Shown here: one piece after another, positions 3,046 through 34,498 of the stretch
Layout: the number at the start of each line of letters is the position of its first letter
Position numbering within the stretch: the stretch's first letter is position 1
The notes under the pieces: generated by a model
Seen by the model: only the letters and a program-made list of their open reading frames with translations
Told to the model about the DNA's origin: nothing
The model's database searches: none
Made by a program: the position numbers and the translations under genes
DNA from: Eledone cirrhosa
Taxonomy: Eukaryota
Direction: 5' to 3'
Length of the DNA stretch: 64,000 nucleotides
NCBI GenBank assembly: GCA_964016885.1
Contig: OZ024740.1
Span: 190,526,001 to 190,590,000 of the forward strand

Positions 3046-3108
<63 letters not shown>
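3046..3108. repeat. (AAT)n microsatellite
   Basis: Directly visible; first spacer of the LINE chain. Confidence 0.97.
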
Positions 3109-4459
3109 GCCATAAACACGCTTGCCATACCAGTAGTAACCTACAGTTACAATGTCATCAACTGGTCAAGCAGGGAGATCCGTAGGCTCGATACAAAAAT
3201 TCGAAATTTCTCAACCATGCACAGAATGCATCACCCTAAGGCAGATATAGATAGAATATATATCCCTAGGAAAGAAGGAGGACGTGGGTTAATCCAGTTA
3301 GACATTGCGTTGAAAACTGCAACAATTGGATTATCTACATATCTAAGGGAATCACATGATTGGATGATCAAACTCGTTTTGAAACACGAAAGCATCAAAA
3401 GATCATATTCCATTACAAAAGATGCACAAAGATACAGTAATGGACTACAAATTTCAGAAGTCCCATTTACTGCTGAAATGGAAAACACAGAAAAAGCAAA
3501 GCAGGTAAAAGTAACTGCAAAGAAAGAACTGCTACAGAAACTACCTAAGAAATGGCAAGAAAAGCCTCTGTATGGAAAATACCCAGAGCGAGCTAACAAT
3601 CCTGATGTTGACAAAACTTTAACCCATCAGTGGTTGGCATCCTCTGGATTGAAATCGGAGACTGAAGGACTGATTATATCAGCACAAGATCAGTGTCTGC
3701 CAACAAAAAATTACCAAGCCAACATAATAAAAAATGGATGCAGCCCATTATGCCGTGTATGCAAAAAACAACCAGAGACCATTGACCATATGATTTCAAT
3801 ATGCAGTCCTATAGCTCCAACCGAATACCTAAACAGGCATGACAGAGCTGCACAATACATACATTGGATAATGTGTAAGCATTTTGACCTGCCCCATCAT
3901 AAGAATTGGTGGGAGCATCAACCACCTCCCATACTTGAAAAAGATCACATCTCAATCTTGTGGTATTTTAGCATCGAAACAGACCGAAAAATAGATGCAA
4001 ATAGACCTGATATAATATTGAAGGACTTTCAAAAGAGGGTATGCCTGCTAATTGATATGTCTGTTCCAATAGACAAGAATGTATCTATAAAAACATTTGA
4101 AAAATTGTGCAAGTATAAGGACATGGAGATAGAAATTGGAAAATGTGGAAATTGAGAACTAAAACAATACCAGTGGTTGTAGGTGCTCTGGGAATGATAC
4201 CTAAGGGGTCTAATGATTACTTATCGCAAATCCCAGGAAACCCGCGTATTGGAGAAATACAAAAGATAGTACTAATGGGAACTGCCCATATACTAAGGAA
4301 GATTCTGTCAATATAAGTACATCACAAGTCTAAACACTAAAGATGCATGTGTGAGTATGTATGTTCTTTCTTGAACATGGCGGACCTTGTTGTCTCTTGA
4401 GGTCACTGGTTGTGACTTGGTGATAACTCGTATGAACGTAAAGCAAGATAAATGCAACT

Positions 4460-4460
<1 letters not shown>
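3109..4460 (+). mobile_element. R4/Dong-clade LINE family A, 5'-truncated copy (ORF 3217-4155 plus 3'UTR)
   Basis: RIYIPRKEGGRGL, CCHC finger CRVCKKQPETIDHMISIC, RHD and RLE motif NRPDIILKD..LIDMSVP. Near-identical to 16400-17747. AAT on both sides. Confidence 0.92.
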
Positions 4461-4525
<65 letters not shown>

Positions 4526-4533
4526 TTAATAAT
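4461..4533. repeat. (AAT)n microsatellite
   Basis: Lies between a Dong 3' end and a Tx1 3' end (tail to tail). Confidence 0.97.
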
Positions 4534-4784
4534 GCTTTCTTTATTAATCACAAGGGTTTACATAAAGTAGACATTAAGGACAGTACAGGACAATACAGGA
4601 CGGTACAAATGGTCATTTTTGCGTGTAAAAAATAAAAACAGAGGATGTAACAAACAAATAACAATGAAAAATTCCACAATACGGGGGAGACTTCCGAGGG
4701 ACATTCGTAGAGAAAGCCCATTAAAAAGCCACAGTCACCCTGACCACCAGGGCAAGTGCCCTCTCCAAGTTTTCCACCTTTAAT

Positions 4785-7700
4785 TTACAGACACATAGAC
4801 AGAGTAGGCTCATTCACTCGGGCCATTCTTGCCTCTCTCACCCATCTTTCAACAAAATGCTGGGAATAGAGCACTTCCCTCTCTACCCTGATTTTCCTTT
4901 TGAAATGAAATTTTAAAAATTTATTCAGGTCATCACCAAATAGGTACGTGTTCATCTTCACCCCTTTCAAACGTGTCCAGCATACTATCTCTTTCGCCAT
5001 GGCCACCAGTTAGATAAAAACTGCCTAACCTTCCAGGCTAAAGGAAGAGGGCGGGGCAATCCTCACGATGGACTCAGCTGATAGCTGGATCCGTCCTACA
5101 CGCGACAGCAGGTGTTCGACATAAACTCACAAGTCAGCAATGCTCAGACACTGGATGAGTGCGTGCCGGAGGGTTTCGTCACCCTGCGCGCATCTAGGAC
5201 ATGCCCGGTTGAGGGCACCTCCATGCCTGTAGAGTTTATCCCGAACTGGCAAAGCTCTTCGGTAGCACTGCCAGGCCAGGGAGTTCTGGAAGTTGTCCAT
5301 AGGCCCCGGCCCGAAAGTTCTTCCGAAGAGATTGTCTAGTTGATTTTCGTCGACGTCTAGAATTTCCACAAGTATATCGTCGCTCTTCCCCTCCACTAAT
5401 CCTCTATAGAACGCCAAGGTGGAGTTTCCACCGAACACATTGCCCGATTGGTCCAGGGCTGTGAGCCTCTGAAGACATTCCAGTCTCCAAGCGCTCCCTC
5501 TCGGTCTTCGCTACACCCAGGACTTCAGCCCTGTCAAGGGAAATGGCTGGGGAAAGACGCGTCTAGGAAACGGCAACCACACATGATCACTGTCGAGGAA
5601 GAGGTGGAGATGTCGTAACCTGAGCGCGTGTCTACGCATCATCAACCACGGCATTCCCAGCCCTCCACGTAGCGGGTGTTGACAGCAGATGGACCGCCTG
5701 ACCATCGGAGCGCGTACCTTCCACAAAAAGCGAAAGAGCAAACGTTCCAGCGCACTCAGTCGGGCTTAGGACAAGGTATGACGGCCAGGCGGTAGTAGAT
5801 GACGGACGCGATGTACGCGTTAGCCACCTCCGCTCGACTTTTCGGGGATAGGTTCATCTCCGCCCATTTCTGGGTGAGAGAAGCCACCCTGCTCATCACC
5901 TCGTCGATGTTGGATGGCCTGGACCTACCAGTCCAGGTGCCGAGCTGCAGGCCCACTGACTTTTCCTGGTTGATCATTGCTCCTGTCACCGCTTCGTATT
6001 CTCTTAGTGTAGTGCCGATAACCTCGATGTCTTTGGCGTTCGACACCACTACGGTGACATCGTCCACATATGCTGACACGGAGCTTCCGCATCCTAATTC
6101 GCGCGGGACGCCCTTCAACGTCTCCAGTTTGTGCAGTAATGGTTCGAGAGTCAATACGTACAAGAGGGACGAGTGGGGACAGCCTTGGCGGATCGAGTGC
6201 ATGATGCTGAACGGTTCCGAAAGGTTACAGTTCACTCTCACCACAGAGCAGCGATGCAGCCTATGAAGACGGGCCCGAAGCCAGCTGCCCTCAGGGTTGC
6301 TGCCAGATAACGATGGTCGACACTATCGAAAGCTTTCGACTGATCTAAATTGGTCAAGATCCCACCCGTGCAAGGTTCCCTATCTACCCATCGCCACGTT
6401 GTATCACATGAGGTGGAGGTTGTCGTGGATGGATCTGTTTGGAATGGCGCATGTCTGCGCCTCTTCCAACAGTCCACCAACGAAAAGCGCCAACCTCTTT
6501 GCTAGCACCTTGGCAAAAATCTTGAAGTCTGTGTTTAGCAGAGTTATGGGCCTAAAATTATCTCTGTTATCGCCCTCGTTCTCAGCAGCGCCACCGCTCC
6601 TCGGCTCACGGAGCCGGGAATTTTCCCGTTCTGTTGCCAGTTGCAGTAGGCCTCCGCCAAGAGGCCTCCGAACAAGTCTGGCATCTGTACGTAAAGTTCA
6701 TAGGCCAGACCCTCCAAACCAGGCGATTTACCCCTTTTACAGCCAATCATTGCCTCCCGTACTTCAACGGCTGTTATCGGCTTTACACAACACTACGCCT
6801 CAGTGGCCGTGAGCCGCGGCAGTACGTCGAGGTAGGCATTAAAGTCCTTCCGTCGATCCGGCTCACGGCAGCACCCAAACAACTGAGCGAAGTGTCGATG
6901 AAAAGCTTCACACATTTCCCCGGGATCGAGTAGCATGCGCCCGTCGTGGTCCACCAAAAACCGGATCGTGGCTTTGTCGCGACGTCGCGCCTCCGCTATT
7001 CGGGCCCATTGAACGGTTTTCGTCCCCTCGGGGCTGAAAACGCAGCCTTCGTGCTTTGCATTGAAGAATTGTTCAAGGGCCAATTTCGCCGCAAACGCGC
7101 CGGTCGCGATGACTTGGCTAAGCCCCTTGTCTAATTGTCTAACTAGTTCTCGCTCTGCTCTATTTTTCTCTATTCCTAAAGCCTTACTAAACATAATGGA
7201 CTCTATTCTAATCGCTCTTTTCAGAGCAAACCACCTTTTGTTGTTGACGATTGCCCCCGTCAACGCCCGCTTAACTAGTTCGCTAATCCAATCTCTGTAG
7301 GCCTTGCGCATTGTTAATGACGCGTTTAGTTTCCAGTAGCCCGGTCCCTGTCTATGAAGCCTATCTAAGTCAACCACACAGATCACGAATGTGTGGTCCA
7401 TGTGGCTGTCTATCTTGAATTGTGGACAGCCTATGCTAGACCTATCTATTTCCCTACAAAATGCTCTATCTAGATAAGATCTGGATGACTCGATGCGGTT
7501 TGTCCAAGTCTACATCGTTCACATTCGGGAAATCCAATCGGTACCTGTACGACAGTTGAAAACGCTTGATTAGCTTTGTGAGGCTTTTACACCCTCATCC
7601 TCTATCCGTTAATCCCACACAATCCCAGCGTGCATCTAAGATCGCGTTCCAGTCGCCCACTAACACTAGAGAGCGGGACGTTCCAAGAAAGGTCTCCAGA

Positions 7701-8073
7701 CGCCGGAAGAATTCAGGCCGTCCTGCTCCTGTTGGGGTACAGGCCGCCACTAGCCAGAAAGCTTGTCCTTATCCGCTGGTCACGTCCAGTACCACCAACT
7801 TACCCTCTGGGTCCAAGAGATCTAGACTTCTCCGGTACAACACGGCCAGTCCCCCCTACTCCCTGATCTGGGACGGCTTGGTGATGTGTTCACCTCGTAG
7901 CCGAGTCTGAATGCCCGTGCCTCGGAGATTCTGGTCTTGCTGATGGCCACCACATCTATGTTTAGCGACCTGAAGTCGTTCAGCAAGTGGCCTTGTTTCC
8001 AAGACGACCCCAGGCCACGTACATTTATGCTACCTATTCTGAGAGAAGCCATGTTGGCTAGCATAGGAGGCAA
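4785..8073 (-). pseudogene. Tx1 ORF2 (APE-RT-Zn finger), many frameshifts and stops
   Basis: Ordered motif fragments in ORFs 7822-8073, 6793-7401, 6544-6750, 6238-6480, 5756-6244, 5511-5741, 5127-5438 and 4785-5006. Confidence 0.9.
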
Positions 8074-8571
8074 CTGAGAAGAGAGAGGTACAAAACATTA
8101 CCTATGAGTCTTCCTTCGAAGGGGGCGGGTGATCCACCCCTCCGACCATTGGTGGGTTTCTCCACGAGAATATCCGTGAATATTCTTTTGGTGATGTTCC
8201 CTCGGTACTCTCCAATTGATGTGGGGAACATTTTTTTCAATGTTACGTAATTTTTTTTGTCTAATTTCTATTATTTTATGTGTGTGGGGTGTGCAATTTT
8301 GGTGGTTTGTACGTAGTTTGTTTCTGTGATGTTGGTGTGGTGTTGAATGCAGTTTAAAAGCTTTGTGTCTATGGCTGTGTATTGTGTCTGTTGTTTGGGT
8401 GTTGGTGCTTTCTGTGTTTGCTGTCGTGTTGTTGGAGGTGACGATGGGGTAGATGTTAAGTGTGGTGGTTTTGGTGTTGGTGGTGGTGATTTTGTAGGTG
8501 GTTGTGGGGGTGTGGCTGTTGATGGTGGTGGAGGGGGTGGTATGGTTTCCATTTTCTTTTAAGGTTCTTTC

Positions 8572-9546
8572 TTACTCTTTTTTTATTTTTGGGGTTGGGA
8601 TGGAGGTGGGGGGAGTTCTTCCTTTTTTTGGTGGAATAGTACTCCACTCTTCGGTCTCATCGCAATCCTTTTCCGATTTGGCTATATCAGGAATGGGTAT
8701 GATTCCCATTGTTTCTGTTGGTGGTGGAAGAGATGGAATTTTTGTTGTTGAGAATAGTGATTTCTCTTCTGCCACTGTGGTCTCTGTTTGTTTGTCTGCT
8801 CCTGTTGTAGGGAACGGCGTGGGGAGAAGGGATGGGCGCAAGCCTGTTTTGGTAAGTTTGGGGCAGGATGCCTTAAGGTGCGTCTTGTCACCGCATCCAT
8901 GACATCTTGGGCGCATACCTTCGACAGTCACGGGTAGATGGCTGCCGTCGTCCAGATCTATTACATCGGGGATGGCTTCAATGCTCTCATAGTTTGCTTG
9001 GATGATTATCTCCATCCCCAAACCTGGACAAGTTTTCTGCCTTATTGGCATGACATTGAGTATGGTTGTTGAATCCTCAACGTCAGCGAGGACGGACGCT
9101 GTCAACCTCGCAATATCCACTAAGGACGGAACCTGGCCCACTCGAGCCCTCACGAGTCTCTGGCCGCAGTATATGGGCATCATTATGATTTCGTCACTGC
9201 GGGGTGGCGCAATGGAGCGTGCTCTGGCTTCTTCTGGTGTAGCGAAGAGCACATCCACAGTGCCATATCTCGATCCCCGGGCTATATATGTTTTCTGTGC
9301 CCAGACGGTGCCCATAGTTCTTTGGACTTCTGACTCCGTTACCCTTTGAACCCGCCGCGATTTTGATCCGATCGTGCGGTAAATCACCGAACACAAATGC
9401 TTGTTTCTTATTATCTCAGCTGAGCGGGTGAGACTTACCCTGTGTCCGGTCTTTTTAACCAAGACCTTAGCTTGTTTTATCTCTTCGTTAGTGATGTGTA
9501 CTTGTTCAACATTATCTGTGGCTGCTGCTGCTGTTGTCACTACCAC
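8572..9546 (-). CDS. Tx1 ORF1 core (zinc-knuckle nucleic-acid-binding protein)
   Basis: 324-aa ORF with VEGMRPRCHGCGDKTHLKASCP, upstream of ORF2. Confidence 0.8.
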   Translation of the reverse strand: MVVTTAAAATDNVEQVHITNEEIKQAKVLVKKTGHRVSLTRSAEIIRNKHLCSVIYRTIGSKSRRVQRVTESEVQRTMGTVWAQKTYIARGSRYGTVDVLFATPEEARARSIAPPRSDEIIMMPIYCGQRLVRARVGQVPSLVDIARLTASVLADVEDSTTILNVMPIRQKTCPGLGMEIIIQANYESIEAIPDVIDLDDGSHLPVTVEGMRPRCHGCGDKTHLKASCPKLTKTGLRPSLLPTPFPTTGADKQTETTVAEEKSLFSTTKIPSLPPPTETMGIIPIPDIAKSEKDCDETEEWSTIPPKKGRTPPTSIPTPKIKKE

Positions 9547-9877
9547 TGTCGCTGTCGCTGCTGCTAATGTTTCTCTTGTATTTTACTTTGCCTTGTGATT
9601 GGGTGGAAGTGGCTGTTTCACCCTCCGAACAACTCGCGGTTCCTCCCTGTGGACAATTTTTTTGGCCCGCCATGTTTTTTTTAAAACAAAATGTTGGGGT
9701 TATGATTGTAAATGAAAGCAAATGTAGCCCTCAAGGGCGCGAGATACAGTTAAAAAAATCACCTCCTTTGACAGAGGGGTTCTTTAACTACACATGGATG
9801 TAAAACATAGTATATAGAACTTTCGAAAAACTCATAACAATTCAACTAACTTACTCCGCCATAGTTACCGCCGTCAA

Positions 9878-9910
9878 ATAATAATAACAACAAATAATAA
9901 TAATAATAAT
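9878..9910. repeat. (AAT)n microsatellite, slightly degenerate
   Basis: Lies between two Tx1 copies. Confidence 0.93.
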
Positions 9911-12775
9911 GATTTCATTTATTAGCCACAAGGGCCGACATGTAGGGGACAATACAAAAACAGGGACAGTGGGGGTTTACAATAAGGTCGAGTAAAAGTG
10001 CACAATGGCAAGACTAATTTAACAATGAAAATATAAAAATATAAAACAAACTATGCATAAATATAACAAGATAAATTCCCCGATAGAGAGTGTACGACCC
10101 TGGGGTGATTCGGGTACCCCACCAATCCTGAACCACCCTGCGCTTCTAGGGCACCCAGGAGAGCACCCCTCTCCTCAAGTTAGCCTGCCTATAGGCGCAT
10201 GGTGAGAGTAGGCTCATTCACACTAGCCATTCTCGCCACATTCACCCACCTTTTAGTAAATGTACTGGGGGGCAACACTTATCTCTCCACCCTCACCCTC
10301 CTTTCCAGGTGAAACTTGAAGAAGTTGATGAGGGATTGGCCGAAGAGAAAAGTGTCTGTCTTTAGTCCTTTCAACCTGGTCCACCATATAATCTCTTTCG
10401 CAACTGCCACCAGACAGAGGAAAATGTCCTGCTCTTCCTGACCTAAGGAAGGTGGCGGCTCGATCTTCACTATGGACTCGGCCGATAGCCGGATTCGTTC
10501 CACACGCAACAGTAGCTGTTCGACATAACTCCACAAGTCAGTAATGCACGGACATTGGACAAGTGCGTGCAGAACCGTTTCGTCGTTCTGTGCGCATCTT
10601 GGGCATGTCCGTCTGACAGCACTTCCGTGCATGTAGAGTTTATCCCGAACCGGCAGTTCCCCCCAGTAGCACTGCCAAGCGAGGGATTTCTGGAAATTGT
10701 CCATCGTCCCCGGCTCAAAACCCTCCGGTACAGACTAGTCAGTTCGACTTCGTCGAGGCCCAAAGATTCTCCGAGTGCGTCATCGCACTTGCCCACCAAT
10801 AATCCTCTATAGAACTCGAGAGTGGAAGTTCCACTGATCGCATTGCCCGCTTGGTAGAGAGCAGTGAGTGCCTGGCAACATTCCAGGTGCCAGTCAGCCA
10901 GTCTCGGTCTCTTCTTGACCCAAGACTGCAGCTCAGTCAAAGAAATGAGCTGCGGAAAGGCCCGTCTGATAAAGGCGACCACACCTGTTCACCATTGAGG
11001 CAGAATATCTGGAGATGTCGCAGCCTCAACGTATGTCTGCGCATCATTAGCCACGGCAAGCCCAGCCCTCCACGTAGAGGGTGCTGGCAGCAGATGGACC
11101 GCCTCACCAACGGAACTTGTCCCCTCCACAAGAATTTGAAGAGGAGCTTTCCAACTTGACGAGGCGCCGACGGAGGCAAGGCACGACGGTTAGGCGGCAG
11201 TAGATGACGGACGCGATGTACGCATTCGCCACTTCCGCGCGACCTTTCAGTGATAGCTTCCTCCCAGCCCATTTTTGGGTGAGACTGGCTACTCTGCTCG
11301 TTACCTCATACCAATTCTTTTCCACCTGGAGGTCTGGTCCGAACCAAACCCCGAGCAACTTTACTGTTCGTCCGTCCAGCGCCCTACGACGCTGTTGGAC
11401 AGCATGGGCTTGCCTCTCCAGGTTCCGAGCTGCAAGCCCACCGACTTTTCCGGGTTAAGTTTGGCTCCTGTCAACCTTTCATATTCCTTCAATAAGGTGC
11501 AGACCACCTCGATTTCTGAGGTGTTCGACATCATCATGGTGATGTCGTCCGCATAAGCCGACACCGCCTTTCCATGTCCCGGTTCGAGCGGGATGCCCTG
11601 CAAAAGCTCCAGCTTCCGCAGTAAAGGCTCGAGAGTCAATACGTACAGAAGGGAAGAGATAGGGCACCCTTGACGGACCGATCGGGAGAGCCCGAAATGG
11701 TTCCGAGAAGTGGGCAATAACCTTGACCACCGAGCGTGTGCCGCTGTGCATTGCAACGATCAAGCTTCTAAAGACAGGGCCAAAGCCAGCTGCTTTGAGG
11801 ACAAACTCCAGATACCGATGGTCGACCCTATCGAATGCTTTCGATTGATCTAATTTGATCAGTGCCCCACCAAAGACAGGTTTACATCCTACCCTCTCTA
11901 TGATGTATCGCATGAGATGGAGATTGTCGTGTATGGACCTGACTGGGATTGCGGAAGTTTGCGCCTCCCCAACCAAATCCTCGACGACAAGCGCCAATCT
12001 CTATGCTAACACATTGGCCCAAATCTTAAACTCTGTGTTGAGCAGAGTTATGGGCCTGAAGTTGTCTAATGTATCCCTCTTGTTCTCGTCTTTCCTTATC
12101 AGCGTCACCACTGCCCTGCTCACAGAACTGGGAATACTCCCATTCTGCTGCCAGTTACAGTAGAATCATTCGAGGAGTTGGGAGAACAAGTCTGGTATAT
12201 TTACGTATAGCTCGTAGGGCAGGCCATCCGAACTGGGTGACTTGCGCCTGATGCAGCCGACAAGGGAGTCCTGAATTTCGGCTGAAGTAATCGGCCTTTC
12301 GCAGCGCTCAGTGTCGACCGTCGAGATGCGCCGCAAGCCGTCAAGGTAGGGACTGAAATCCGCTATTCTCTCTGACTCGCCACTCTCCCTGAACAACCAG
12401 GCAAAGTGCCGGCGAAAGGCCTCACACATCCGCTTGGAATCGCTTATCTCGTGTCCGTCTCGGTCCGCCAAAGACCGAATTGTAATTTTATTACCACGCT
12501 GCGCCTCCGCCACGCGGGCCCATCGAACAACTTTAGTTCCCTCGTTTCTCAGCGCACGCGCCTTAGCTCTGACAATGCAACCTTCGTGTTTGTCATTGAA
12601 GAAATGGTCTAATGCCATTCTCGCCGCTAGCACGTCAGTTGCGATGCCACTAAAATAGCCTCGTCTAACTTATCTACCAGCTCCCCCTCCTTTCTATTTT
12701 TCTCTAACACTAGTTCTTTGCTGAACTCTATCGAAGTTACTCTAATCTCTCTTTTGAGAGCCCCCCTCCCCCACC

Positions 12776-12776
<1 letters not shown>
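9911..12776 (-). mobile_element. Tx1-clade LINE copy 3, 5'-truncated (RT to 3' end)
   Basis: LDQSKAFDRVDH, VRQGCPISSLLY, AYADD and CPRCAQNDETVLHALVQC. The 3'UTR is highly similar to copy 4. Confidence 0.92.

Positions 12777-12820
<44 letters not shown>
12777..12820. repeat. (AAT)n microsatellite
   Basis: Lies between the Tx1 truncation point and a Dong 5' end. Confidence 0.97.
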
Positions 12821-12822
<2 letters not shown>

Positions 12823-13691
12823 GGGAAGAAGACGCACGAGGTGGTAGAAGGTTGAAATCGCTCCCGTAAGTTTTTGATTTTTAACATATTTAAATCAATT
12901 GTGAAATATCAATTCTTAGTACAAATGATGCATAAATCACCGAATCAAGTCTGATAAAAATTCGGATCCATAATATATTGTTATATCGCTCAAATATTCA
13001 AATTTGTATTATATATTTTATATTGAAAAAAGAAAATGGTTATAAACGGAAGAAAACCCCCTCTGTCTACACTATATAGAACAGCCAAATAACAGCAATT
13101 TCAACAACACCAGAAACTAGATACACCACCTACCACATCACCCCGCTGTGTACACTAAATATAACAGCCAGATAACGGCAATTTCACCACCTCCACCACC
13201 AATCCCAGCATCATAATAATAATTACTATTATTATTGTCTCAAGTTTTAACAAAATATTTAATTCAAATATTAAATTAATATGTCAAAACATATATTAAA
13301 CATACGCGACACAAACGCATAGATACTACAGATCAAACAAAACTAGTCTATTCGACAAAACTCAGTAACGATAACGCCACCACTACCACCACTCCATCCA
13401 TCATTGCTATCACTATCCCATCACCAACGTCACCACTCCTTCATTGCTACCACCACTATTCCCCTGTTAACTTAAGAAAGGGGAAGCTGGCGGTATCACT
13501 AGACAAGGGAGAGGCTAGCAAAAGATATAAATAGATTGACTTAGTGACCCGGCCATCGACCAAATGTCAACAGCTATGGCACTGCTGGCTCCCCCCTTCA
13601 CCACCAACAATATAAAAAAAGCCCCAGCACCACCACCGACACAGCCAACAACAATAACAGGCAACTTCAGCAAAAAGTATATTATATTATT

Positions 13692-13748
13692 GTAATGCAC
13701 TGGGTAATTGCTGGCCTTGTGCCTGGAGTGGAAACAATTACTAATAAT
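13692..13748 (+). mobile_element. SINE 3' fragment inside the Dong-A 5'UTR
   Basis: gtaatgcactgggtaattgctggccttgtgcctggagtggaaacaatta matches the SINE tail at 38749-38800 and follows tattattatt. Confidence 0.7.
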
Positions 13749-13987
13749 TTCATTCTTAAGCCACGCAATGCTCACATTAAGGAACCACTCATGATAATAA
13801 CAATTAAAAAAAAATAAATAAATAAAACACCTTGACCCAGAAATACCGGGATGGCGGCCGGCGGGGAATAGCCGTGTCTCTAGGGGAGAACGACCCCTCT
13901 AGTCTTGGTTGACACTCGTTCTAGAAGTGGTAACACAAAATGATTACCCCTTGGCGGATAAGGATAAAACGCGACAAAATAAAGTAA

Positions 13988-16900: not shown

Positions 16901-17607
16901 TGACAAAACTTTAACCCATCAGTGGTTGGCATCCTCTGGACTGAAATCAGAGACTGAGGGACTGATTATATCAGCACAAGATCAGTGTCTGCCAACAAAA
17001 AATTACCAAGCCAACATAATAAAAAATGGATGCAGCCCATTATGCCGTGTATGTAAAAAACAACTAGAGACCATTGACCATATGATTTCAATGCGCAGTC
17101 CTATATCTCCAACCGAATACCTAAACAGGCATGACAGAGCTGCACAATACATACATTGGATAATGTGTAAGCATTTTAACTTGCCCCATCAAAAGAATTG
17201 GTGGGAGCATCAACCACCTCCCATACTTGAAAAAGATCACATCTCAATCTTGTGGAACTTTAGCATCCAAACAGATCGAAAAATAGATGCAAATAGACCT
17301 GATATAATATTGAAGGACTTTAAAAAGAGGGTATGCATGCTAATTGATATGTCCGCTCCAATAGACAAGAATGTATCTATAAAAACATTTGAAAATTGAG
17401 CAAGTATAAGGACCTGGAGATAGAAATTGGAAAAATGTGGAAATTGAGAACTAAAACAATACCAGTGGTTGTAGGCGCTCTAGGAATGATACCTAAGGGG
17501 TCTAATGATTACTTATCGCAAATCCCAGGAAACCCGCGTATAGGAGAAATATAAAAGATAGTACTAATGGGAACTGCCCATATACTAAGGAAGATTCTGT
17601 CAATATA
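13988..17607 (+). pseudogene. R4/Dong RT-CCHC-RLE polyprotein (disrupted)
   Basis: ORFs 15127-15462, 15999-16646 and 16770-17399 carry RT and endonuclease motifs in order. Confidence 0.9.
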
Positions 17608-17747
17608 AGTACATCACAAGTCTAAACACTAAAGATGCATGTGTGAGTATGTATGTTCTTTCTTGAACATGGCGGACTTTGTTGTCTCTTGAGGTCAATG
17701 GTTGTGACTTGGTGATAAATCGTATGAACATAAAGCAAGATAAATGC

Positions 17748-17781
17748 ATAATAATAATAATAATAATAATCATAATAATAA
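17748..17781. repeat. (AAT)n microsatellite
   Basis: Dong/Tx1 tail-to-tail junction. Confidence 0.95.
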
Positions 17782-20700: not shown

Positions 20701-23462
20701 CCTACACTATTTCTATCCATTTTCCTAATGAAGATTCTAGATGACCCTATGCGGATGGTCCACGTCCACACTGGCACATTGGGGAAATCTAGTCGATACC
20801 TGTCAGACAGTTGGAACAGGCTGATTAAGTGTTTGAGGCTTTTGCACACCCCGCTCCTATCAGCTTCTCCCACACAATCACATCGCGCGTCTAAGATGAC
20901 GTTCCAGTCCCCCGCTAACAGTAGAGGGCGAGACGTACCCAGAAAGAACTCTAGGCGCCTAAAGAAGTCCGGTCGTCCGGCCCCAGTTGGGGCGTAGACG
21001 GCCAGCAGTCTAAAGGCACCACCTTCGCAACTGCTCACATCCAGGTACCGTCCGGGTCCCGAAAGAATGACCTTACCTCGAGATCCAGACTTTTCCTAAA
21101 CAGTACCGCCACCCCACCTCCCATTCCCGGCCTGCTAACACATGCGAAGTTCTGATAGTCGTCAAAATTGGGGGCTAGTGCGCGCGTGTCGGAAATCCTT
21201 GATTCGCTGACGGCAATCACATCCATTCCCAGAGACCTGAGGTCGTTCAGCGGGCGACCCTGCTTCCAGGGTGAGTCCAGACCACAAACACTTAAACTTA
21301 CTATTCTTAATATGGCCATAATGGCAAGCTAAAAGAGAGAGTGAAGGTTTACTTACCTCCCGGGGTCTTGGGTAAGTCGGGTGGTTCGAGCTCCATGCTT
21401 GGTGAGGTTTCTTTTGGGAACCCCTTTAAAAGTCCTGATGTGGGTTTCACGTTCGTGGTTCCCACGTCTTGAGGAAAACTCTCTCGAATTTCTTTGTAGA
21501 AATTGAGCGACATTCGCACCAGAAGCAAATCTTCTGGCACGCAAAATGTGTTCAGTTCAAAGATCTTCCCCTCTGTTTGGATGTTCTCGCTACGTGCTAA
21601 AGGGCCATTAATTCATCGTTGGCCGTCCTGACAAGCACAAAGTGTTTAATGTTTTGTTGGTGTGGTTTTATTTGTTTTCGTGTTGGTGACTGTGGTAGTG
21701 ATGGTTTTGGTGGTGCTGTTTCGGGTATGTCTGTGTTTGTTGTAGGTGTGGTGTCTGCAATTTCAGGTATTTGTTGTTTATTTCTTCTCTGTGTTTGTTT
21801 AGGTTGTTTGCATTTCGGGGATTTGTCGGGGTGGTGTTGATGTTGATTTTTGTGTTGATCTTATTGGGGAAGTGTTTGCGTTAGTGGTGTCTGTATTTTT
21901 TTGTTGTGTATGTTCTAGTGTTATGTTGTGGCTTTTTTGTGAGTTTTCTCTTTTGTTTTTTGGCACTTTTGGGTTTTCCTTCAAATTCACTGGTGAAAGA
22001 CAAAGGGTCTGTGGCTGTGAGTGCATCTGTATCTGTGTGTGCATTTATTGTTTCGTCTATATGTATAATTGGAGTTGTATGGGGTGTGGGAGAGCTTTCC
22101 CCGTTTTCCCCTTGGATTGGTTTCAGTGCTGATGGTGGTCCGACTGTTCTTGATGTTGGTGGTGTTTATGTTGGTGGTGGTACAGCTTTTCGTGCTGACA
22201 CTGGTGTTGGCAACAAAGGAGGTTTGAGACTCCCCGCATTTTTGAGCTGAGGGCAGAATGCTTACAGATGAAGCAGTGCGGCCTTCAACCCTCACCGATT
22301 ATGTTGTTCGTATCCTCTGGTTTCATTTGGAGAGAATTCTCTAAAACCATTGCGGACCAATCTTCTCTCTCTGTCCTTTTGATATCCAGGAGGGTAGTGT
22401 CTGCCCCATCCTCGATTACGCTTCGCACGAGCCACCATATATTCATTCCTGGTGGGATCCTGGGAATGCGGATCTTTACTATTCTTTTTTCCATGTAGGA
22501 CGGGTGCATGATAATGTGTTCCGTGATGCAGGGGGTTACCGAGTGCTGAATAGCAAGGTCCTGGGTTTTGAAAAGTAACGAATGGTACCGAACTGATTGG
22601 CCCTTGTACTCTATGTCACCTCCGATGCACTTCAAAGCAGCCTCGACCTCTGCTTAGCTGGAAAGTTCCACTTTGCGTGTCTGCACTGAAATGCATCGAA
22701 TGTACACCGTCCTCCTTTGCATGGCCGCTATTGCCATGTCCGGGATGGTTAGGTTTGCCCAGGACTTCTCCCGTTTAATTAACCTCCACGTCTGGGCCAA
22801 CTGTTCGTCTTTATCGCTAATATCAACATTCAATAAGCGCTTTGTTTCGCTGCTGCCGCTGCAAAGGTGTGTGCCTCTGTTGCTCTTGTTGTTGGTGTTG
22901 TCGTTCTTGCTGTTGTTGTTGATGTTGTTGTTTTGTTGTTGCTGTTGCCACCGTCAACCGTATTTACATTGAGGCTGTCGGTGTTATTTTCGTTGTTGTT
23001 CGGATCTGTTGTTGTTGTGGTGGTGGTGGTGGCGGTGATAATGTTGTTTTGCGATGATACTGTAACTATCACCGAAGCGAGCGGTTGTGGTGGTACCTTT
23101 TGTGTTTTGCCTTCACATTCAGTGGAATGGACGACAAACATGTCTGTAGCAGTAGTAGTTGTGGTGAGATCTACAGTGGCTGCTTTTGAACTTTTGACCT
23201 GAACGTTGTTTACCGATTCAAGATCGAACATTTCCATTTTTTTTTGTTGGTGGGGAGCGATTTTTTCGAAGTTTTTTAAAATAAATCTGAATATTCGCGC
23301 TTAAAGTCCGAATATTGAGAGGTCTCCCTTCCTTTGGAACCAAGATGGGTCTCTTATGCTTCGTTAACGACAAGAAAATACAAAAAACTGATACTTTAAA
23401 ACAGCTTAACGTTACGAACCTTTTACCCCGCCGATTTGTACGTCTTCATACATGTGTGTCAA
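17782..23462 (-). mobile_element. Tx1-clade LINE copy 4, near full length, decayed
   Basis: ORF1 remnants 21349-23237. ORF2 starts at 21319 (MAILRIVSLSVCGL; LAVYAP, AGDWN, YSDH, GPGYW, GYVDD). (ATT)n tail. Confidence 0.92.
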
Positions 23463-23700
23463 CTAATGATAATGATAATAATAATAATAGTAATAATTGT
23501 TTCTACTATTGGCACACGGCCAGGAAGTACCCAATGCATTACTGGTACTTTATTCTATCGACCCCGGAAGGATGAAAAGCAAATTTAACCTCGGCGGGAT
23601 TTGAAATCAGATCATACTCATAATAATAATAATAATAATAATTGTTTCTACTTTAGGCACAAGGCCAGCAAATACCCAGTGCATTACTGGTACTTTATTT

Positions 23701-23736
<36 letters not shown>
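23463..23736 (-). mobile_element. Two MetaSINE-like SINE 3' fragments (23496-23612, 23641-23701) embedded in (AAT)n
   Basis: Reverse complement of gcttttcatccttccggggtcgatagaataaagtacc..ggccgtgtgcc..gtagaaacaatt, matching the SINE at 38613-38802. Confidence 0.8.
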
Positions 23737-23737
<1 letters not shown>

Positions 23738-24847
23738 CTGAACAGAAAGAAATGGATAGTAAGACAAGGAAGCTATTGACTATCTACAACATGTTCCACA
23801 AGAGGAGTGATGTCGATAGACTCTACTTAAGGAGATCTGAGTGTGGAAGAGGTCTTATCAGCATAGAGGACTGTGTTCAGATGGAGAAAAACAATCTACA
23901 CAAAAACGTGACAGATAGTAAGGAGCCAATTCTCAGAACTGTACTGAAGGAGGGGACAATAGGCTAGGGGATGTCCAAGGGGGAAATAACATCAAGGAGA
24001 AAGAGCAGCCTTCAGGAAAAATCACTTCATAGTACCTTCTTTGAGAAAACTGAATTTAGAGATCCACAGACATGGAACTGGTTGAAAAGAGGAGACCTTA
24101 AAAAGGCTACAGAACGAATGTTAATGGCTGCGCAGGAGCAGGCCCTCAAAACGAAGTGGTTGAAACACCATATTTACAAAGAGGAGGCTAGCCCACTGTG
24201 CAGGATCTGTGGAGAGAGAGAGGAGACTGTGGCTTACATTGTATCCGAGTGTAAACACCTAGCCCAGACCCACTATAAGGGTTGGAGACATGATGTGGTG
24301 GGCAGGGTGATCCACTTGCACCTATGCAAAGTAAACAAGTTACCATATTCTGAGAAATGGTATGAGCATAAGCCAGAGGCGGTGATAGAAAACGGTCAGG
24401 TGAAGGTGCTGTGGGATTTTAGGATACAGACGGACAGGAAACTGAAACACAATAGACCTGACCTGGTGGTTGTCGACAAAGAAAAAAGATCGTTCCTGAT
24501 TGTGGATGTGGCCTGCCCATTCGACACGAGAGTGCAAGAGAAGGAGAGGGAGAAAATCACCCGATACCAGGACTTAAAGTGGGAGGTAAAAAGGATTTGG
24601 AACTGCCATGAAGTCAAAGTGATCCCGATTGTCATAGGCGCACTAGGGACTATCTCAAAATGTTTCCAGGGATGGTTAAAGAAAATTGGCCCCTTCACGC
24701 TTTTTGGACGCTTCAAAAGGCATGCTTGCTGGGAACAGCAAGAACCCTCCGATACGTCCTGAATATCTGAGGCTGCAGGTAGTGGCTTGATATTCATTTC
24801 AATACACTTTCCAGTTAACTAACATCAATGACTGAGACTCAAAGAGT
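23737..24847 (+). mobile_element. R4/Dong-clade LINE family B, 5'-truncated copy
   Basis: RLYLRRSECGRGL, CRICGEREETVAYIVSEC, RHD, LWDFRIQTD, NRPDLVVVD..VDVACP. AAT flanks. Confidence 0.92.
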
Positions 24848-24886
24848 AATAACAACAATAATACTAATAATAATAATAATAATAAT
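24848..24886. repeat. (AAT)n microsatellite
   Basis: Lies between two Dong-B copies. Confidence 0.9.
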
Positions 24887-27800
24887 GGTTATGAATGGAA
24901 GAAAACTCCCTCTGTCTACACTATATAGAACAGCCAATTAATAGCAATTTCACCAACACCACAAACTAGATACACCACCTATACCATCACTGCTCTTTGT
25001 ACACTAAATACAACAGCCATATAACGGCAATTTCACCACCACCACCACCAATCCCAGCATAATAGTTATAATTACTGTTATTATTGTCTCAAGTTTTCAC
25101 AAAATGTTTAATTCCCATATTAAGAAAAATAATGTCAACACATATATTAAACATACGCGACTAACCGCATAGATTCACCGATCAAACAAAGCTACAGTCT
25201 ATTCAACAAAACTCAGTAACGACAACGCCATCACTAAAGTCACAGCCGCCACCACTCCATCCATCATTGCTACCACTATCCCATCACCGCCGCCACCACT
25301 CCTTCATTGCTACCATCGCTATTCCCCCATCACCTTCTGTTAACTTACAAAGGGGGAAGGTGGCGGTATCATTAGACGATATTAATAAACAATATTAATA
25401 ATTAATTTTGGATCAGGAATGTTGGAGTCGAAAAGGAGAAAAATGGCAAAATGACTAAATAGCTAAATAGCTGAAGATAATTTCACCACCAACACCACCA
25501 CCACTACCACACTAAAAACTCTGGTCAAGTTGCCTCAACCTCTCAACCTCTATTCCTACTTCAACTTCAACACCATCACTACAGTACTACGATCACATCA
25601 CCACCACCACTGCCTCATTATTGCTACCACCGCTATTCTCTCCCACTACCTCCTGCTAGGTACTACTAGCACAGCACCACCACCACCACCACCACCACCA
25701 CCACTGCCTAATTATCACTACCGCCGCTATTCTCTCGCACTACCCCCTGCAACATCGTAGTGTCCCCACTAAAAGAGGAAGGCATCAAAATATATAAATA
25801 GACTGAATTGATGACCCGGTCAAAATCAAAACACCCAAATCAGAATCAAAGCAGCACAGCAACAACGAAAAACGTAAAGAAAAGAAAAATGAAGAGACGA
25901 ACAAATAGACGGACAGAGAAGGGAAGGGAAAAACTAAGTCAGACATTCAAACACTAGCTTACAATGGAAATTATGCGTATTCATTTTTTTTTTTGGAGGG
26001 GGGGTTGACTGTTTGTTTATTTGTTTATTTATGTTCGTCTACAGCGTGATATTGCCACACAAAAATCACCGGGAGTGACGAAATCACCGGAGGTGATGAA
26101 ATCACCGGTGGTTATGTAAGCATACATTCGCCAATCCTCGATAAGAGTGTTTAAATGTCGAACATAAACAGTTCGAATAACGGTGAAGTGGAGACTAGAA
26201 TGTCATGTGACCGACTCTCACCCAACAGGTGCTCCCTGGCTCAGCAGCAAGGACCTGGCTGTCAACCAATTACTGCTGGTGTCGGAGGAAGAAGAAGAAG
26301 GAAAGGGACCAGAACCAACTGGATGAAAGAATTGAATAGAACTGTTATTCAATGTTACCTGAAGAGTAACCCCGAGGAGAAAGGCTATAGGAAACGGATG
26401 GATAACATCTGGAACGAGATTGGTCTATTTACGTCAGATGAACAAAAATTGGTCAGGCAGGCTCGGGTAATAAGAACTAATGGGTGGATAAGCGAGCTGG
26501 AACTGGAGGAAATGAGCAGAGAGATTAGCTTGGAAATGGAGAGTGGAGTATGCCAGGCAAACGAGCCAGTGGGAAATGAAGGTGACGAGCTCGAGAGAAC
26601 TGTCGAACCATTCGAAGCAGACAATGATCTGAATGCTGAAATAAATAATACCTGTAACAGAGATACGGACACTGAGGAGATGAATGCTGACGGGCTAGGA
26701 AAAATTTGGTTGATATCCTAAACTTAGTTGTAGATGAATTGAACAATGATAGTGGGAAACCTATGAACCTCAGATTTGTAGACAGGAAAAAGTTAAAAGA
26801 AATAACAGCTGAGGTAAACAAAGTCATCCCATACCTTGAGGCGAGGAGCCTTCACGAATGCAACAATATCCTCAAAGCAACAGCAAATACGGTGAGGAAA
26901 TTACTTGGTATAAAAGCTAGAGGAAACAACAAACAAGAAAGATCAGAGCCTTGGTGGAAGAAACGACTGAGTGGTCACATTAGGGAAATGAGAAATGACA
27001 TTGGAAAGCTTGAGTCCCTACTGAATGGGACACTAAAAAACATAGACACTAAAATAGACTGGAAATAAAGTACAAAACTAGGAGGAAAAAGCTAAATATT
27101 ACCATAGAGGAACTGAAGCAACGCATTGTAGCAAAGTGTGCAAAAATCAGGCGATACGGGAACAGAGTCAGTCAATATAGACAGAACCGCATGTTTGACA
27201 ACAACCAGAAGATGCTGTTTGGACAACTTGAAGGGAAAGAAAGAGGCAACGATTTGATCCCTGAGGCGGAACAAACTAAAACATTCTGGAGAGGAATATG
27301 GGAGCAGGATGTTAAACATAATGACCAGGCAGTGTGGATTGAGACAGTACAGAAGGAGATTAGTGAACAGGCACACCAACAAACTGATTTGAGTATCACA
27401 GTTGAAACTCTTAAGGAGCAGGCCAAAAAACTAACCAACTGGAAATCACCAGGCCCAGATGGTGTGCAGGGGTATTAGATTAAAAATATAACATCACTCC
27501 ACCCGAAACTGACAACCATGTTCAATGACTGCTTGATGTCAAGTGAGGTACCACAGTGGTTGACAAAAGGTACCACAGTTCTGATAATTAAAGACCAAAT
27601 CAAGGGTAATGATGTTACCAACTATAAACCTATCACATGTCTGTTCGTAATGTGGAAACTGTTGACAAGCATTGTCTGAGGAAATCTTCCATCACCTCCA
27701 CACAAACAACTTGTTACCGGACGAACAGAAAGGATGCCGAAAGAAGTCCCGTGGTACAAAGAACCAGTTACTTATTGATAATATGGTAATGAGGAATTGC

Positions 27801-29646
27801 AAGAGGAGACACACTTGTCTTGCCATGGAATGGATAGACTACAAAAATGCATTTGACATGGTGCCTCATTCTTAGATCCAAAAGCCTAGCGATCTTCAAT
27901 GTGTCAGATAACATCAGACAGTTGTTGGGCAAAAGTATGGAGTCCTGGAAAACATAGTTAACATCAGCTGGAGAATCCTTGGGAAGCGTGAAGATCAAGA
28001 GAGGTATCTTCCAGGGGGATAGTCTGTCCCCTCTGTTGTTTGTCCTTGCCCTGATGCCCCTGACCAGTGTACTGCGAAAAGTGAGAGAAGGAAACAGGTT
28101 GGGAAAGGGAGGACTTACCATCAATCAGCTCCTCTTCATGGATGATCTTAAGCTCTTCGGGAAGAGTCAGAAGGAGTTGGGTGTGCTTGTTGACACTGTC
28201 CGTATTTTCAGCAATGATATTTATATGCAATTTGGTATTAGTATGTGTGGAGTCCTTGTGAAGAAGAGGGGTAAATTGAGCAGAAGTAACGGAATCCAGG
28301 TACCAACAGGTGAGATGATAAAGGAAATTGACACTGAAGAAGGATAAAAGTATTTCGGTGTTCTGGAGGCTGATGACATCAAGAACAAAAAAATGAGGAA
28401 ATTGCTAGGAACTGAATACATTCGGAGAATAATGAGCGTATTAAAATCACATCTGAATAGTAGGAATGCCCTAAGTGCAGTAAATTCCCGAGCTGCGTCT
28501 ATTATTAGGTACAGTGCGGGAATTCTGAGATGAAATGTTGCTGAACAAAAAGAAATAGATAGGAAGACTAGGAAGCTATTGACTATCTACAACATGTTCC
28601 ACAAGAGGAGTGATGTCGATAGACTCTACTTAAGGAGATCTGAAGGTGGAAGAGGTTTATCAGCATAGAGGACTGTGTTCAGATGGAGAAAAACAACCTA
28701 CACAAATACGTGACTGATAGTAAGGAGCCAATTCTCAGAATTGTACTGAAGGAGAGGACAATAGACCAGAGGATGTCCAAGGAGGAAATAACATCAAGGA
28801 GAAAGAGAAGCCTTCAGGAAAAATCCCGTCATAGTACCTTCTTTGAGAAAACTGAATTTAGAGATCCACAGACATGGAACTGGTTGAAAAGATGAGACCT
28901 TAAAAAGGCTACAGAACGAATGTAAATTGCTGCGCAAGAGCAGGCCCTCACAACGAAGTGGTTGAAACACCATACTTACAAGGAGGAGGCTAGCCCACTG
29001 TGCAAGATCTGTGGAGAGAGAGGAGACTGTGGCTCATATTCTGTCCGAGTGTAAACACCTAGCCCAGACTCACTATAAGGGCTGGAGACATCAAGTGATG
29101 GGCAGGGTGATCCACTGGCACCTATGCAAAGTAAACAACATACCACATTCTGAGAAGTGGTATGTGCATAAGCCAGAGTCGGTGATAGAAAACGATCAGG
29201 TGAAGGTGCTGTGGGATTTTAGGATACAGACGGACAAGAAACTGGAACACAATAGACCTGACCTAGTGGTTGTGGACAAAGAAAAAAGATCGTGCCTGAT
29301 TGTGGATGTGGCCTGCCCATTCGACACGAGAGTGCAAGAGAAGGAGAGGGAGAAAATTAACCGATACCAGGAATTAAAGTGGGAGGTAAAAGGATTTGGA
29401 ACTGCCATGAAGTCAAAGTGATCTCGATTGTCATAGGCGCACTAGGGACTATCTCAAAAAAGTTTCCAGGGATTATTAAAGAAAATTCGCCACTTCACGC
29501 TTTTTGGAACGCTTCAAAAGGCATGCTTGCTGGGAATAAAAAGAACCCTCCGATATGTCCTGAATATCTGAGGCTGCAGGTAGTGGCTTGATATTCATTT
29601 CAACAAACTTTCCAGTTAACTAACATCAATGACTGAGACTCAAAGA
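24887..29646 (+). mobile_element. R4/Dong-clade LINE family B, near full length, decayed
   Basis: ORF from 26155: WKSPGPDGV, EQKGC, WIDYKNAFD, GIFQGDSLSPLLF, LLFMDDLKLF and RLE motifs. The 3'UTR matches 24760-24847. Confidence 0.92.
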
Positions 29647-29668
29647 ATAATAATAATAATAATAATAT
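29647..29668. repeat. (AAT)n microsatellite
   Basis: Lies between two Dong-B copies. Confidence 0.93.
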
Positions 29669-32579
29669 TAGGGGGAAGATATACACGAGGTCGATTATAG
29701 TGTTATGGAATCGCTCCCGTAAGTTTTTGATTTTTACATATTTAAAACAACTGTGATAGAATAATCCTTATTACAATTGAAACATAAGATTACTTTTTTT
29801 TTTTTCTTACTCTCAGCAAGCGATAACGCATCACATTATGACACAGGGCCCCACTATTTAATATTTAATTTTGGATCAGAAGTGATATAGTAAAGAAAGA
29901 GGAAAATCGCTACGCGGACAGACAGGCAAATCATTTCACCACCAACACCATCGCCGCCACCATCACCACTACCACGCAAAGATATCTAGCCAAGCCAACT
30001 GTTACTTCAACTTCTATTTCTACTTCAACTTCAACACCATCACTGCAGTACTACGATCACATCACCACCACCACCACTGCCTCATTATCGCCACCGCCGC
30101 TATTCTCTCCCACTACCTACTGCTAAGTACAACTATCACATCACCACCACTGCCTCATTATCGCTACCGCGGCTATTCTCTCCCACTACCTCCTGCTAAG
30201 TACTACTATCACATCACCACCACCACCACCACTGCCACATTATCGCTACCGCCACTATTCTCTCCCACTACCTCCTGCTAAGACAGAGGGATCTTAGCAT
30301 TCCAACTGAGTGAGGAAGGTATCAAGAGATATAAATAGACTGATGTGATGACCCGGTCAAAAAATCAAAATATATAAAATCAAAATCAAAACAGCACAAC
30401 AGCAACGAAAAACGTAAAGAAAAGAAAAAAGAAAAGAAAAACAAGCAAACAAATAAACAAACAAAAAAACTAAGTCAGACATTCAAACATTACATTACAA
30501 TGAAACTTAAACTTATGCTTATTTTTTTTTAAACTTTTAACCTATTTATTTGTTTATTTATTTATGTTCGTCTACAGAGTGATAGTGCCATGCTAAAATC
30601 ACCGGGGGTGATCAAATCACTGGGGTGATGAAATCACCGGTGGTTATGTAAGCATACATTCACCAATGCTCGATATGAGTGTTTAAATGTCGAACATAAA
30701 CGTTTCGAATAACGGTGAAGTGGAGACTGGAACGTTATGTGACAGACTCTCACGCAACAGGTGCTCCCTAGCCCAGCAGCAGGGAGCTGGCTGTCAACCA
30801 ATTACTGCTGGTGTCGGAGGAAGAAGAAGAAGGAAAGGGACCAGAACCAACTGGACGAAAGAATTGAATAGAACTGTCATGGAATGTTACCGGAAGAGTA
30901 ACCCCTAGGAAAAAGGCTATAGGAAACGGATGCATAGCATCTGGAAGAAGATTGGTCTATTTAAATTAGATGATCAAAAATTGGCCGGGCAGGCTCGGGT
31001 AATAATAACTAATGGGTGGATAAGCGAGCTGGAACTGGAGGAACTGAGCAGAGAGATTATATTGGAAATGGAGAGTGGAGTATGCCAGGCAAACGAGCCA
31101 GTGGGAGATGAAGGTGAAGAGGTTGAGAGAACGGAGGAAGCATCCGAAACAGACAATGATCTGAATGCTGAAATAAATGATACCTGGAACAAAGATACGG
31201 CAATTGAGGAAATGAATGCTGACAGGCTAGGACAAGATTTGGTTGATATCCTAAACTTAGTGGTAGATGAAATGAACAATCATAGTGGGAAACCAATGAA
31301 CCTAAGATTGTAGACAGGAAAAATTGAAAAGAAACAACAGCTGAGGTAAACAAAGTCATCGCATACCTTGAGGCGAAGAACCTTCACCAGTTCCACAATA
31401 TCCTCAAAGCAACAGCAAATGCGGTGAGGAAATTACTTGGCATAAAAGTGAGAGGAAACAACAAACAAGAAATATCAGCGCCTTGGTGGGAGAAACGACT
31501 GAGTGGTCAAATCAGGGAAATGAGAAATGACTTTGGAAAGCTTGAGTCCCTACTGAATGGGACACTAAAAAACATTGACACTAAAACTAGACTGGAAATA
31601 AAGTACAAAATTAGGAGGAACAATCTAAATATTACCATAGAGGAACTGAAGCAACGCATTGTAGCAAAGAGTACACAAATCAGGCGATACGAGAACAGAG
31701 TCAGTCAGTATAGACAGAACTGAATGTTTGACAACAACCAGAAGATGCTGTTTGGACAACTTGAAGGGAAAGAAAGAGGCAACGACATGATCCCTGAGGC
31801 GGAACAAACTAAAACATTCTGGAGAAGAATATGGGAGCAGGATGTTAAACATAATGACCAGGCAGTGTGGATTGAGACAGTACAGAAGGAGATTAGTGAA
31901 CAGGCACACCAATAAACTGATTTGAGTTTCACAGTTGAAACTCTTAAGGGACAGGCCAAAAAATTAACCAACTGGAAATCACCAGGCCCAGATGGGTTAT
32001 TGGATTAAAAATATAACATCCCTGCACCCGAAACTGACAACCATGTTCAATGACTGCTTGATGTCAGGTGAGGTACCAGAGTGGTTGACAAAAGGTACCA
32101 CAGTTCTGATAATGAAAGACCAAATCAAGGGTAATGATGTTACCAATTATAGAACTATCACATGTCTGTCCGTCACGTGGCAACTGTTGACAAGCATTAT
32201 GTCTGAGGAAATCTACCATCACCTCCACACAAACAACTTGTTACCGGACGAACAGAAAGGATGCCGAAAGAAGTCCCGTGGCACAAAGAACCAGTTACTT
32301 ATTGATAAGATCGTAATGAGGAATTGCAAGAGGAGACACACTTGTCTTGCCATGGAATGGATAGACTACAAAAATGCATTTGACATGGTGCCTCATTCTT
32401 GGATAACCAAAAGCCTAGATATCTTCAATGTGGCAGATAACATCAGACAGTTGTTGGGCAAAAGTATGAAGTCCTGGGAAACAGAGTTAACATCGGGCGG
32501 AGAATCCTTGGGAGGTGAGAAGATCAAGAGAGTTATCTTCCAGGGAGATAGTTTGTTCCCTCTGTTGTTTGTCCTGACC
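29669..32579 (+). mobile_element. R4/Dong-clade LINE family B, 5' half, broken inside RT
   Basis: Homologous to 25395-28050 and ends just after IFQGDSLFPLLFVL. Confidence 0.9.
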
Positions 32580-34490: not shown

Positions 34491-34498
34491 ATTAGGCT

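Follow-up and report, generated by a model that had tools for sequence, protein, structure and literature searches.

In the 64-kb window examined here (positions 190,526,001-190,590,000 of one chromosome in the 3.0-Gb chromosome-scale assembly of Eledone cirrhosa, a mid-chromosome locus), retrotransposons form a chain in which the spacers are AAT repeats and each kind of element faces one way. Long interspersed nuclear elements (LINEs) that we call DongA and DongB lie on the plus strand, and LINEs that we call Tx1A and Tx1B lie, together with short interspersed nuclear elements (SINEs), on the minus strand. We are largely confident that this chain is a serial pile-up of independent insertions in AAT repeats, in which Dong faces one way and Tx1 and the SINE the other, likely through nicking and priming on each enzyme's own strand, and that repeat fit for reuse probably remains on either side after an insertion, allowing the chain to grow further. 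The names Dong and Tx1 rest on architecture, target and literature.

Results

Layout of the chain

Self-comparison and annotation resolved ten elements between 3109 and 32575 that alternate with ten AAT spacers, namely five Dong-like LINEs of the R2 group on the plus strand, and three Tx1-like LINEs of the L1 group and two SINEs on the minus strand. The spacers measure 22-72 bp each (403 bp in total) and all ten read AAT on the plus strand, including those at 5'-truncated ends. This order, with its strands and spacers, agrees throughout 3046-32575 with a first-pass annotation of the window. That annotation had the chain end at 32579, but it continues to 34491 through an eleventh piece, of DongA, fused without AAT, and the whole thus amounts to 31.4 kb; likewise the three Tx1 copies are all on the minus strand as described, but represent two families, about 71-73% alike, rather than one. 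Left of the chain (5' of 3046) lies DNA belonging to none of the families. Every copy in the chain is decayed, and no stop-free frame in the window exceeds 348 amino acids. The chain may have originated in one single AAT array, as the first-pass annotation supposes. Its parts are as follows (RT, reverse transcriptase; RLE, restriction-like endonuclease; APE, apurinic/apyrimidinic-type endonuclease; ORF, open reading frame; UTR, untranslated region).

3046-3108, plus: (AAT)21 spacer at the left end of the chain (repeat annotation)
3109-4461, plus: DongA, 5'-truncated, with zinc knuckle, RLE and 3' UTR (96% to 16401-17747; weak Pfam zf-RVT match)
4462-4533, plus: AAT spacer, tail-to-tail
4534-9876, minus: Tx1A, near full-length, decayed, with ORF1 and an APE-RT-zinc knuckle ORF2 (RVT_1, zf-RVT)
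9877-9910, plus: interrupted AAT spacer, the same variant standing 5' of 16 of 29 other Tx1A copies
9911-12775, minus: Tx1B, 5'-truncated (self-comparison, Pfam)
12776-12821, plus: AAT spacer, head-to-head
12822-17747, plus: DongA, full-length, with a 5' leader of about 1.2 kb and a single decayed ORF (RT, CCHC, RLE)
17748-17781, plus: AAT spacer, tail-to-tail
17782-23463, minus: Tx1B, full-length, decayed, with APE at about 21038-21328 (Exo_endo_phos, RVT_1; family APE)
23464-23497, plus: degenerate AAT spacer
23498-23619, minus: SINE of a 184-bp family whose 3' end is Tx1-like, with the 3' two-thirds present
23620-23642, plus: AAT spacer
23643-23701, minus: SINE 3' fragment
23702-23736, plus: AAT spacer flanked by two truncated 5' ends, where no neighbouring tail can supply the repeat
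23737-24846, plus: DongB, 5'-truncated (93.8% to 28540-29645)
24847-24886, plus: AAT spacer that starts with a variant tail recurrent in DongB, found in 12 of 29 other DongB tails
24887-29645, plus: DongB, near full-length, leader truncated, ORF decayed
29646-29667, plus: AAT spacer
29668-32575, plus: DongB 5' part, which stops inside the RT
32576-34491, plus: older internal piece of DongA, joined to DongB without AAT, 3' end lost (85% to 15118-17119)

At the 32575/32576 junction the DongA piece begins at an internal AATAAT of its own ORF, and direct DongA/DongB fusions without AAT occur at two other genome loci (L221, L206). These fusions suggest deletion between neighbours or a template switch.

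Junctions and polarity at dispersed copies

The genome was searched with the repeat-free 3' and 5' ends of the elements, and up to 30 best loci were kept for each, the window's own being dropped; the copies lie on many chromosomes. Anchor copies were picked without regard to their flanks, and an end was scored as carrying repeat when its 30-nt flank held at least 9 nt of it, leaving unscored 41 anchors with the 5' end outside the locus. Dong anchors had AAT at 46 of 49 3' ends; at the 5' end it was present in 25 of 29 full and 25 of 35 truncated copies, and leaders of the DongB type adjoined AAT at 25 of 29. Tx1 anchors had ATT at 53 of 58 3' ends (one with both motifs), 46 of 58 full 5' ends and 18 of 31 truncated 5' ends. 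No Dong or Tx1 anchor end carried the wrong strand alone. When all copies in loci L001-L281 were pooled, a tally that is less independent because it includes neighbours, Dong ends showed AAT 187 times and ATT never (n = 225), and Tx1 ends ATT 133 times, both once and AAT never (n = 188). By comparison, 9 nt of AAT or ATT repeat occurred in 70 of 20,000 random 25-mers (0.35%) from 40 evenly spaced 10-kb control stretches.

Element pairs facing each other across an AAT spacer kept the polarity in 202 of 203 cases; the one that broke it involves an inverted piece of 37 bp at the 5' end of a Tx1B copy. Thirteen spacers separate two truncated heads, nine of them a truncated Tx1 head from a truncated Dong head, and no tail can account for repeat in such a position. 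At the 3' end of two Tx1B copies a single ATT unit gives way to (CTT)n, which makes the downstream repeat largely target rather than tail. An origin of the flanking repeats from tails only is ruled out by truncated 5' ends and head-to-head spacers. The first-pass annotation had staked its interpretation on 5' junctions, truncated ones included, mostly bearing the repeat and on orientation to AAT being non-random, and both expectations are borne out. Some Tx1 copies sit in CTT, AGT or GTT repeats; polarity is strict, and targeting is not absolute.

Identity of the Dong-like LINEs

For protein analysis, less-broken copies of each family were taken from elsewhere in the genome. DongA and DongB each have a single ORF with RT, a CCHC knuckle and a PD-(D/E)xK-type C-terminus (RLE), and no APE; the C/H, PD and K residues of this C-terminus are invariant across 55 sequences. 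A structure model of the DongA C-terminus (predicted local distance difference score, pLDDT, 93) matched R2 proteins best (C-terminus template-modelling score 0.76, E 1e-10), and the nearest solved proteins to these LINEs are likewise R2. Structure modelling thus predicts an R2-type C-terminal endonuclease fold for the plus-strand LINEs. The homologues retrieved include no named R4/Dong references. Members of the Dong/R4 clade have an N-terminal Myb-like domain and no C2H2 fingers; eight Dong homologues inspected by eye show a W-x-x-E-D/E motif and no C2H2 finger, with no Pfam match for the N-terminal domain. A 5' ribozyme like that of hepatitis delta virus (HDV) had no Rfam match in window positions 1-36000, nor was one detected in three Dong leaders by a home-made descriptor, which is crude and was used without a positive control.

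The DongA and DongB proteins are 39% identical, and despite this the two families have in common a 5' leader of about 680 nt at roughly 85% identity (in the window at 12822-13504, 24887-25377, 29668-29790 and 62787-63287). With a DongB leader as query, 27 of 29 leaders precede DongB ORFs; with a DongA leader, 1 of 29 does. This distribution suggests that leaders may have been exchanged between Dong lineages. The DongA leader also holds a SINE 3' fragment (13692-13758, plus), which aligns unbroken in many other DongA copies and is therefore part of the DongA family. At 14 of 29 full-length DongA 5' junctions, the AAT array is separated by AAG units from the first bases of the element, perhaps from slippage at the end of reverse transcription.

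Identity of the Tx1-like LINEs and the SINE

Tx1A and Tx1B have two ORFs, ORF1 and an ORF2 of L1 type with APE, RT and zinc knuckle (Exo_endo_phos, E 8e-8; RVT_1; zf-RVT), and their homologues bear the same three domains. Among solved structures ORF2 is closest to L1 ORF2p (E 6e-45) and its endonuclease matches that of L1; for Tx1A, as represented at 4534-9876, the family ORF2 is likewise closest to L1 ORF2p, and the 5' end of that copy is common to 29 others. The minus-strand LINEs have an L1-type APE and RT. An AATAAA-type signal lies a few bases before the 3' terminus. Among close homologues the single named one comes from Argonauta hians (69% identity), and no named Tx1, Kibi or Koshi references were among the homologues; the Tx1 label draws on architecture and on the published abundance of L1-Tx1 elements in octopus. 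A metagenome scan for the flanks of Tx1 relatives in other animals confirmed no locus.

The window opens with the 5' part of a sister Tx1-like family (1-2388, minus) beside a GATA repeat (2389-2472), and (TATC)n stands at the 5' end of all 19 other copies of this family examined, which shows that each family has its own repeat. ATT arrays are adjoined by no fewer than three other distinct 5' ends (L209, L219, L227, L284-L309; window 63493-63545), some leading into Tx1-like sequence, and hence more families use this target than the chain contains. Outside the chain, a Tx1A-related fragment at 55161-56788 (plus) has ATT before it.

The SINE family is 184 bp long and its 3' end appears to resemble that of Tx1 over about 30 nt in a seven-sequence alignment. 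Pooled over loci, its ends carry ATT 133 times and AAT once (n = 273). No tRNA was among the Rfam matches at one locus with a full copy, where a tRNA-derived head was looked for. From the common 3' end and the polarity, the SINE is likely mobilised by Tx1 enzymes. Two SINEs outside the chain (38611-38793 and 63302-63478, both plus) stand next to short repeats.

Repeat gained on insertion

Counted from the element's 3' end, SINE target duplications of 10-20 bp were found in 24 informative cases of 113 (shuffled mean 4, maximum 8), and 20 of these 24 begin with ATTA. The elements also bring some repeat themselves, as DongB tail units, 12 of 29 other copies opening with one variant, and as a Tx1A 5' pad, one interruption being common to 16 of 29 other 5' flanks. 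Full-length 5' junctions are for this reason weaker evidence of targeting than truncated ones.

Chains elsewhere in the genome

Of 194 anchor ends, 125 have a member of these families beginning no more than 200 bp away, as do 600 of 18,955 random positions (3.2%), and the families make up 5.5% of the 400 kb of control DNA. The genome contains 20,444 sites of (AAT)8 preceded by two non-A bases. Among the first 30 listed arrays of (AAT)8 or longer on the same chromosome, 22 touch these families, and five of the other eight belong to one multicopy repeat with a fixed internal AAT array, seen at L293, L296, L299, L303, L306 and L311, with a DongB copy sitting in it at L303. The first 100 (AAT)8 sites include 27 neighbours within 12 kb (4-8 expected), 24 of them on the same strand.

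Six such clusters, picked by eye within the first 27.3 Mb of this chromosome, yielded three chains measuring about 25, 28 and 28.5 kb and two more of 18.5 kb and no less than 14 kb; the sixth was covered by a single 10-kb stretch. Polarity was kept at all their spacers; where spacers were absent, one SINE was nested and one Tx1 piece was inverted. As similar chains lie elsewhere on the chromosome, the 31-kb locus is an ordinary and common product; a rough extrapolation would give hundreds of such chains genome-wide.

Other features of the window

Beyond the retrotransposons, a long inverted repeat (36494-37356 and 37640-38612; 91% over 574 bp, with 7-bp tandem arrays) is possibly a foldback or miniature inverted-repeat (MITE-like) element, and another of about 560 bp at 90% identity (48966-49524 and 51602-52162), enclosing 2 kb, is possibly a DNA transposon.

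Discussion

Target-primed reverse transcription is established, and from it we infer that the Dong and Tx1 enzymes nick opposite strands. Dong would nick and prime on the strand reading ATT, giving the element followed by (AAT)n, and Tx1 and the SINE would do so on the strand reading AAT, giving the element followed by (ATT)n. Tx1 transcripts may extend into the ATT pad and use it for annealing, with the SINE riding on the Tx1 machinery; if Tx1 enzymes do drive the SINE, its insertion in a pure array would duplicate about 4-6 units. DongB contributes a few tail units and Tx1A a 5' pad, both of them templated, and replication slippage probably adds more. Duplication, pads and slippage together could keep spacers long enough for further insertion.

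Several observations weigh against this account. By the 9-nt rule, repeat is absent from 13 of 31 truncated Tx1 and 10 of 35 truncated Dong ends. The SINE is mostly outside arrays; in random stretches ATT adjoined 7 of its 29 3' ends. Some junctions have no AAT, such as that at 32575/32576 and, in other chains, those of a SINE within a DongB leader and an inverted Tx1 piece within another leader. Duplications were found for 4 of 67 Tx1 LINEs (shuffled maximum 3), few being informative, and for 8 of 102 Dong copies, which is not above the shuffles (mean 7.45). Spacer classes differ in length (Kruskal p 0.001; medians 32 bp tail-tail, 28 bp head-head, 41.5 bp Dong tail-head and 30 bp Tx1/SINE head-tail), but not in the order that a simple model of tail addition predicts, the tail-tail class not being the longest. 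The left flank was present in three runs of one study only; no empty allele was seen in four runs aligned over 2480-13100, whose multi-copy depth makes this uninformative, and among the listed joints none skips a whole element. The first-pass annotation had proposed that an RLE and an APE clade converge on AAT in opposite orientations and that each insertion regenerates the target. Junctions and endonuclease types uphold the convergence, but the targeting is not exclusive, given the SINE and the Tx1 copies in other repeats; regeneration is seen for the SINE, is suggestive for Tx1 and stays at shuffle level for Dong. These figures for Dong and for tail-tail spacers speak for a rival in which targeting is as we describe but insertion regenerates nothing, slippage having made long arrays that the elements then saturated, and the occupation of 22 of 30 long arrays fits saturation equally well. 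We nonetheless think this unlikely, as the SINE duplications and the recurrent variant pads show repeat added by insertion, and the spacers sum to 403 bp against a longest perfect array of 38 units in the loci examined.

Dong might be the sole targeting clade, with the ATT of Tx1 and the SINE arising as a slippage-made 3' tail that Dong later used; targeting of TAA by Dong is published (PMC3812793), full-length Tx1A itself brings part of the ATT at its 5' end and the SINE requires just ATTA. The truncated Tx1 5' ends on ATT, the nine spacers between truncated Tx1 and Dong heads, and the two Tx1B copies in which the 3' repeat is target have already largely refuted this idea, which we hold to be very improbable. 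Three adjacent DongB copies, and a DongB/DongA fusion hinting at deletion between neighbours, might instead recall a few insertions that were multiplied by tandem duplication or unequal crossover, or misassembled. Yet siblings in the chain differ by 4-29% and in their truncation points, all ten chain segments tested have a nearer relative dispersed in the genome than within the chain, and similar chains with other element orders exist at other loci; tandem duplication is thus ruled out as the main cause, scarcely any credence is left for this explanation, and the copies, judged by sequence divergence, inserted independently. Random insertion followed by selective retention in harmless repeat-rich DNA would agree with the transposable element (TE) hotspots of Octopus vulgaris (PMC13282606). 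It cannot yield base-exact junctions, the observed polarity or a sister family on another repeat, and we consider it extremely improbable.

Serial insertion in AAT repeats may have wider consequences. We propose, tentatively and with somewhat less than even confidence, that the RLE clade, together with several APE families and a SINE, makes most of the long (AAT)n arrays of this genome, as shared safe harbours with hundreds of polarised chains of 20-50 kb, and that head-to-tail packing lets deeply diverged Dong lineages swap their 5' leader and conceals current Dong/Tx1 activity from insertion callers that use short reads. A short-read caller found few non-reference Dong sites (PMC9115989), and the repeat nature of the flanks suggests that such callers under-count Dong insertions. 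The chain provides a landing rule for Dong-R4 and L1-Tx1, two of the most active octopus LINE groups (PMC13282606), and a candidate cause of octopus TE hotspots. It also brings together, in nature, two unrelated endonucleases that are expected to cut a single simple substrate on one strand each, making target recognition directly testable.

Comparison with known systems

Dong, DongAg and DongBg belong to the R4 clade and use TAA microsatellites (PMC3812793, PMC3774820). The elements described here are like them in RT, CCHC, C-terminal RLE and TAA/AAT on both sides in sense orientation; one published member is from a mollusc. They differ in forming two lineages with a common 5' leader and in using thousands of interstitial sites jointly with an APE clade; they may also differ from Bombyx Dong, for which a 5' HDV-like ribozyme was shown (PMC3774820), in that our weak test found none. 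In cephalopods Dong-R4 and L1-Tx1 are described as abundant or active (PMC13282606, PMC8967140, PMC9115989), and the available parts of these three papers contain no analysis of their targets.

The Tx1 elements Kibi, on (TC)n, and Koshi, on (TTC)n (PMC3812793), and crocodilian families on (TTCC)n/(TTTC)n (PMC4494074) are, like ours, two-ORF APE LINEs specific for a microsatellite, and the (CTT)n in which some of our copies sit is the Koshi repeat. Here, in contrast, the main target is (ATT)n, which is not among the published targets in the accessible texts, and an RLE clade uses the same target from the other strand. Tx1-1_ACar was rejected as a precedent, being telomere-specific. SINEU and Tx1-Mar have a common target preference and make sequential tandem insertions around a target duplication (PMC4494074); there a Mariner element is the target, in place of the ATTA or (ATT)n used here, and our SINE has about 30 nt of 3' end like Tx1. 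The literature searched gave no ATT-specific Tx1 and no RLE/APE pair on one microsatellite, and Repbase, Kojima and Fujiwara 2004, Xiong and Eickbush 1993 and the PMC4494074 supplements may list ATT-specific Tx1 elements. Each part of the system has a precedent, in Dong on TAA, in Kibi and Koshi, and in TRAS and SART, and the combination was not met in that literature.

A functional parallel may be drawn with TRAS and SART, which insert oppositely in the (TTAGG)n of Bombyx (PMC7265360, PMC10088271). In both cases two LINE lineages insert in opposite orientation in one tandem repeat and form arrays. TRAS and SART are both R1-clade APE elements confined to telomeres, whereas here an RLE and an APE clade meet at dispersed microsatellites. 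The chain system thus works like TRAS/SART without being a member of it, since one partner has an RLE and the locus lies mid-chromosome.

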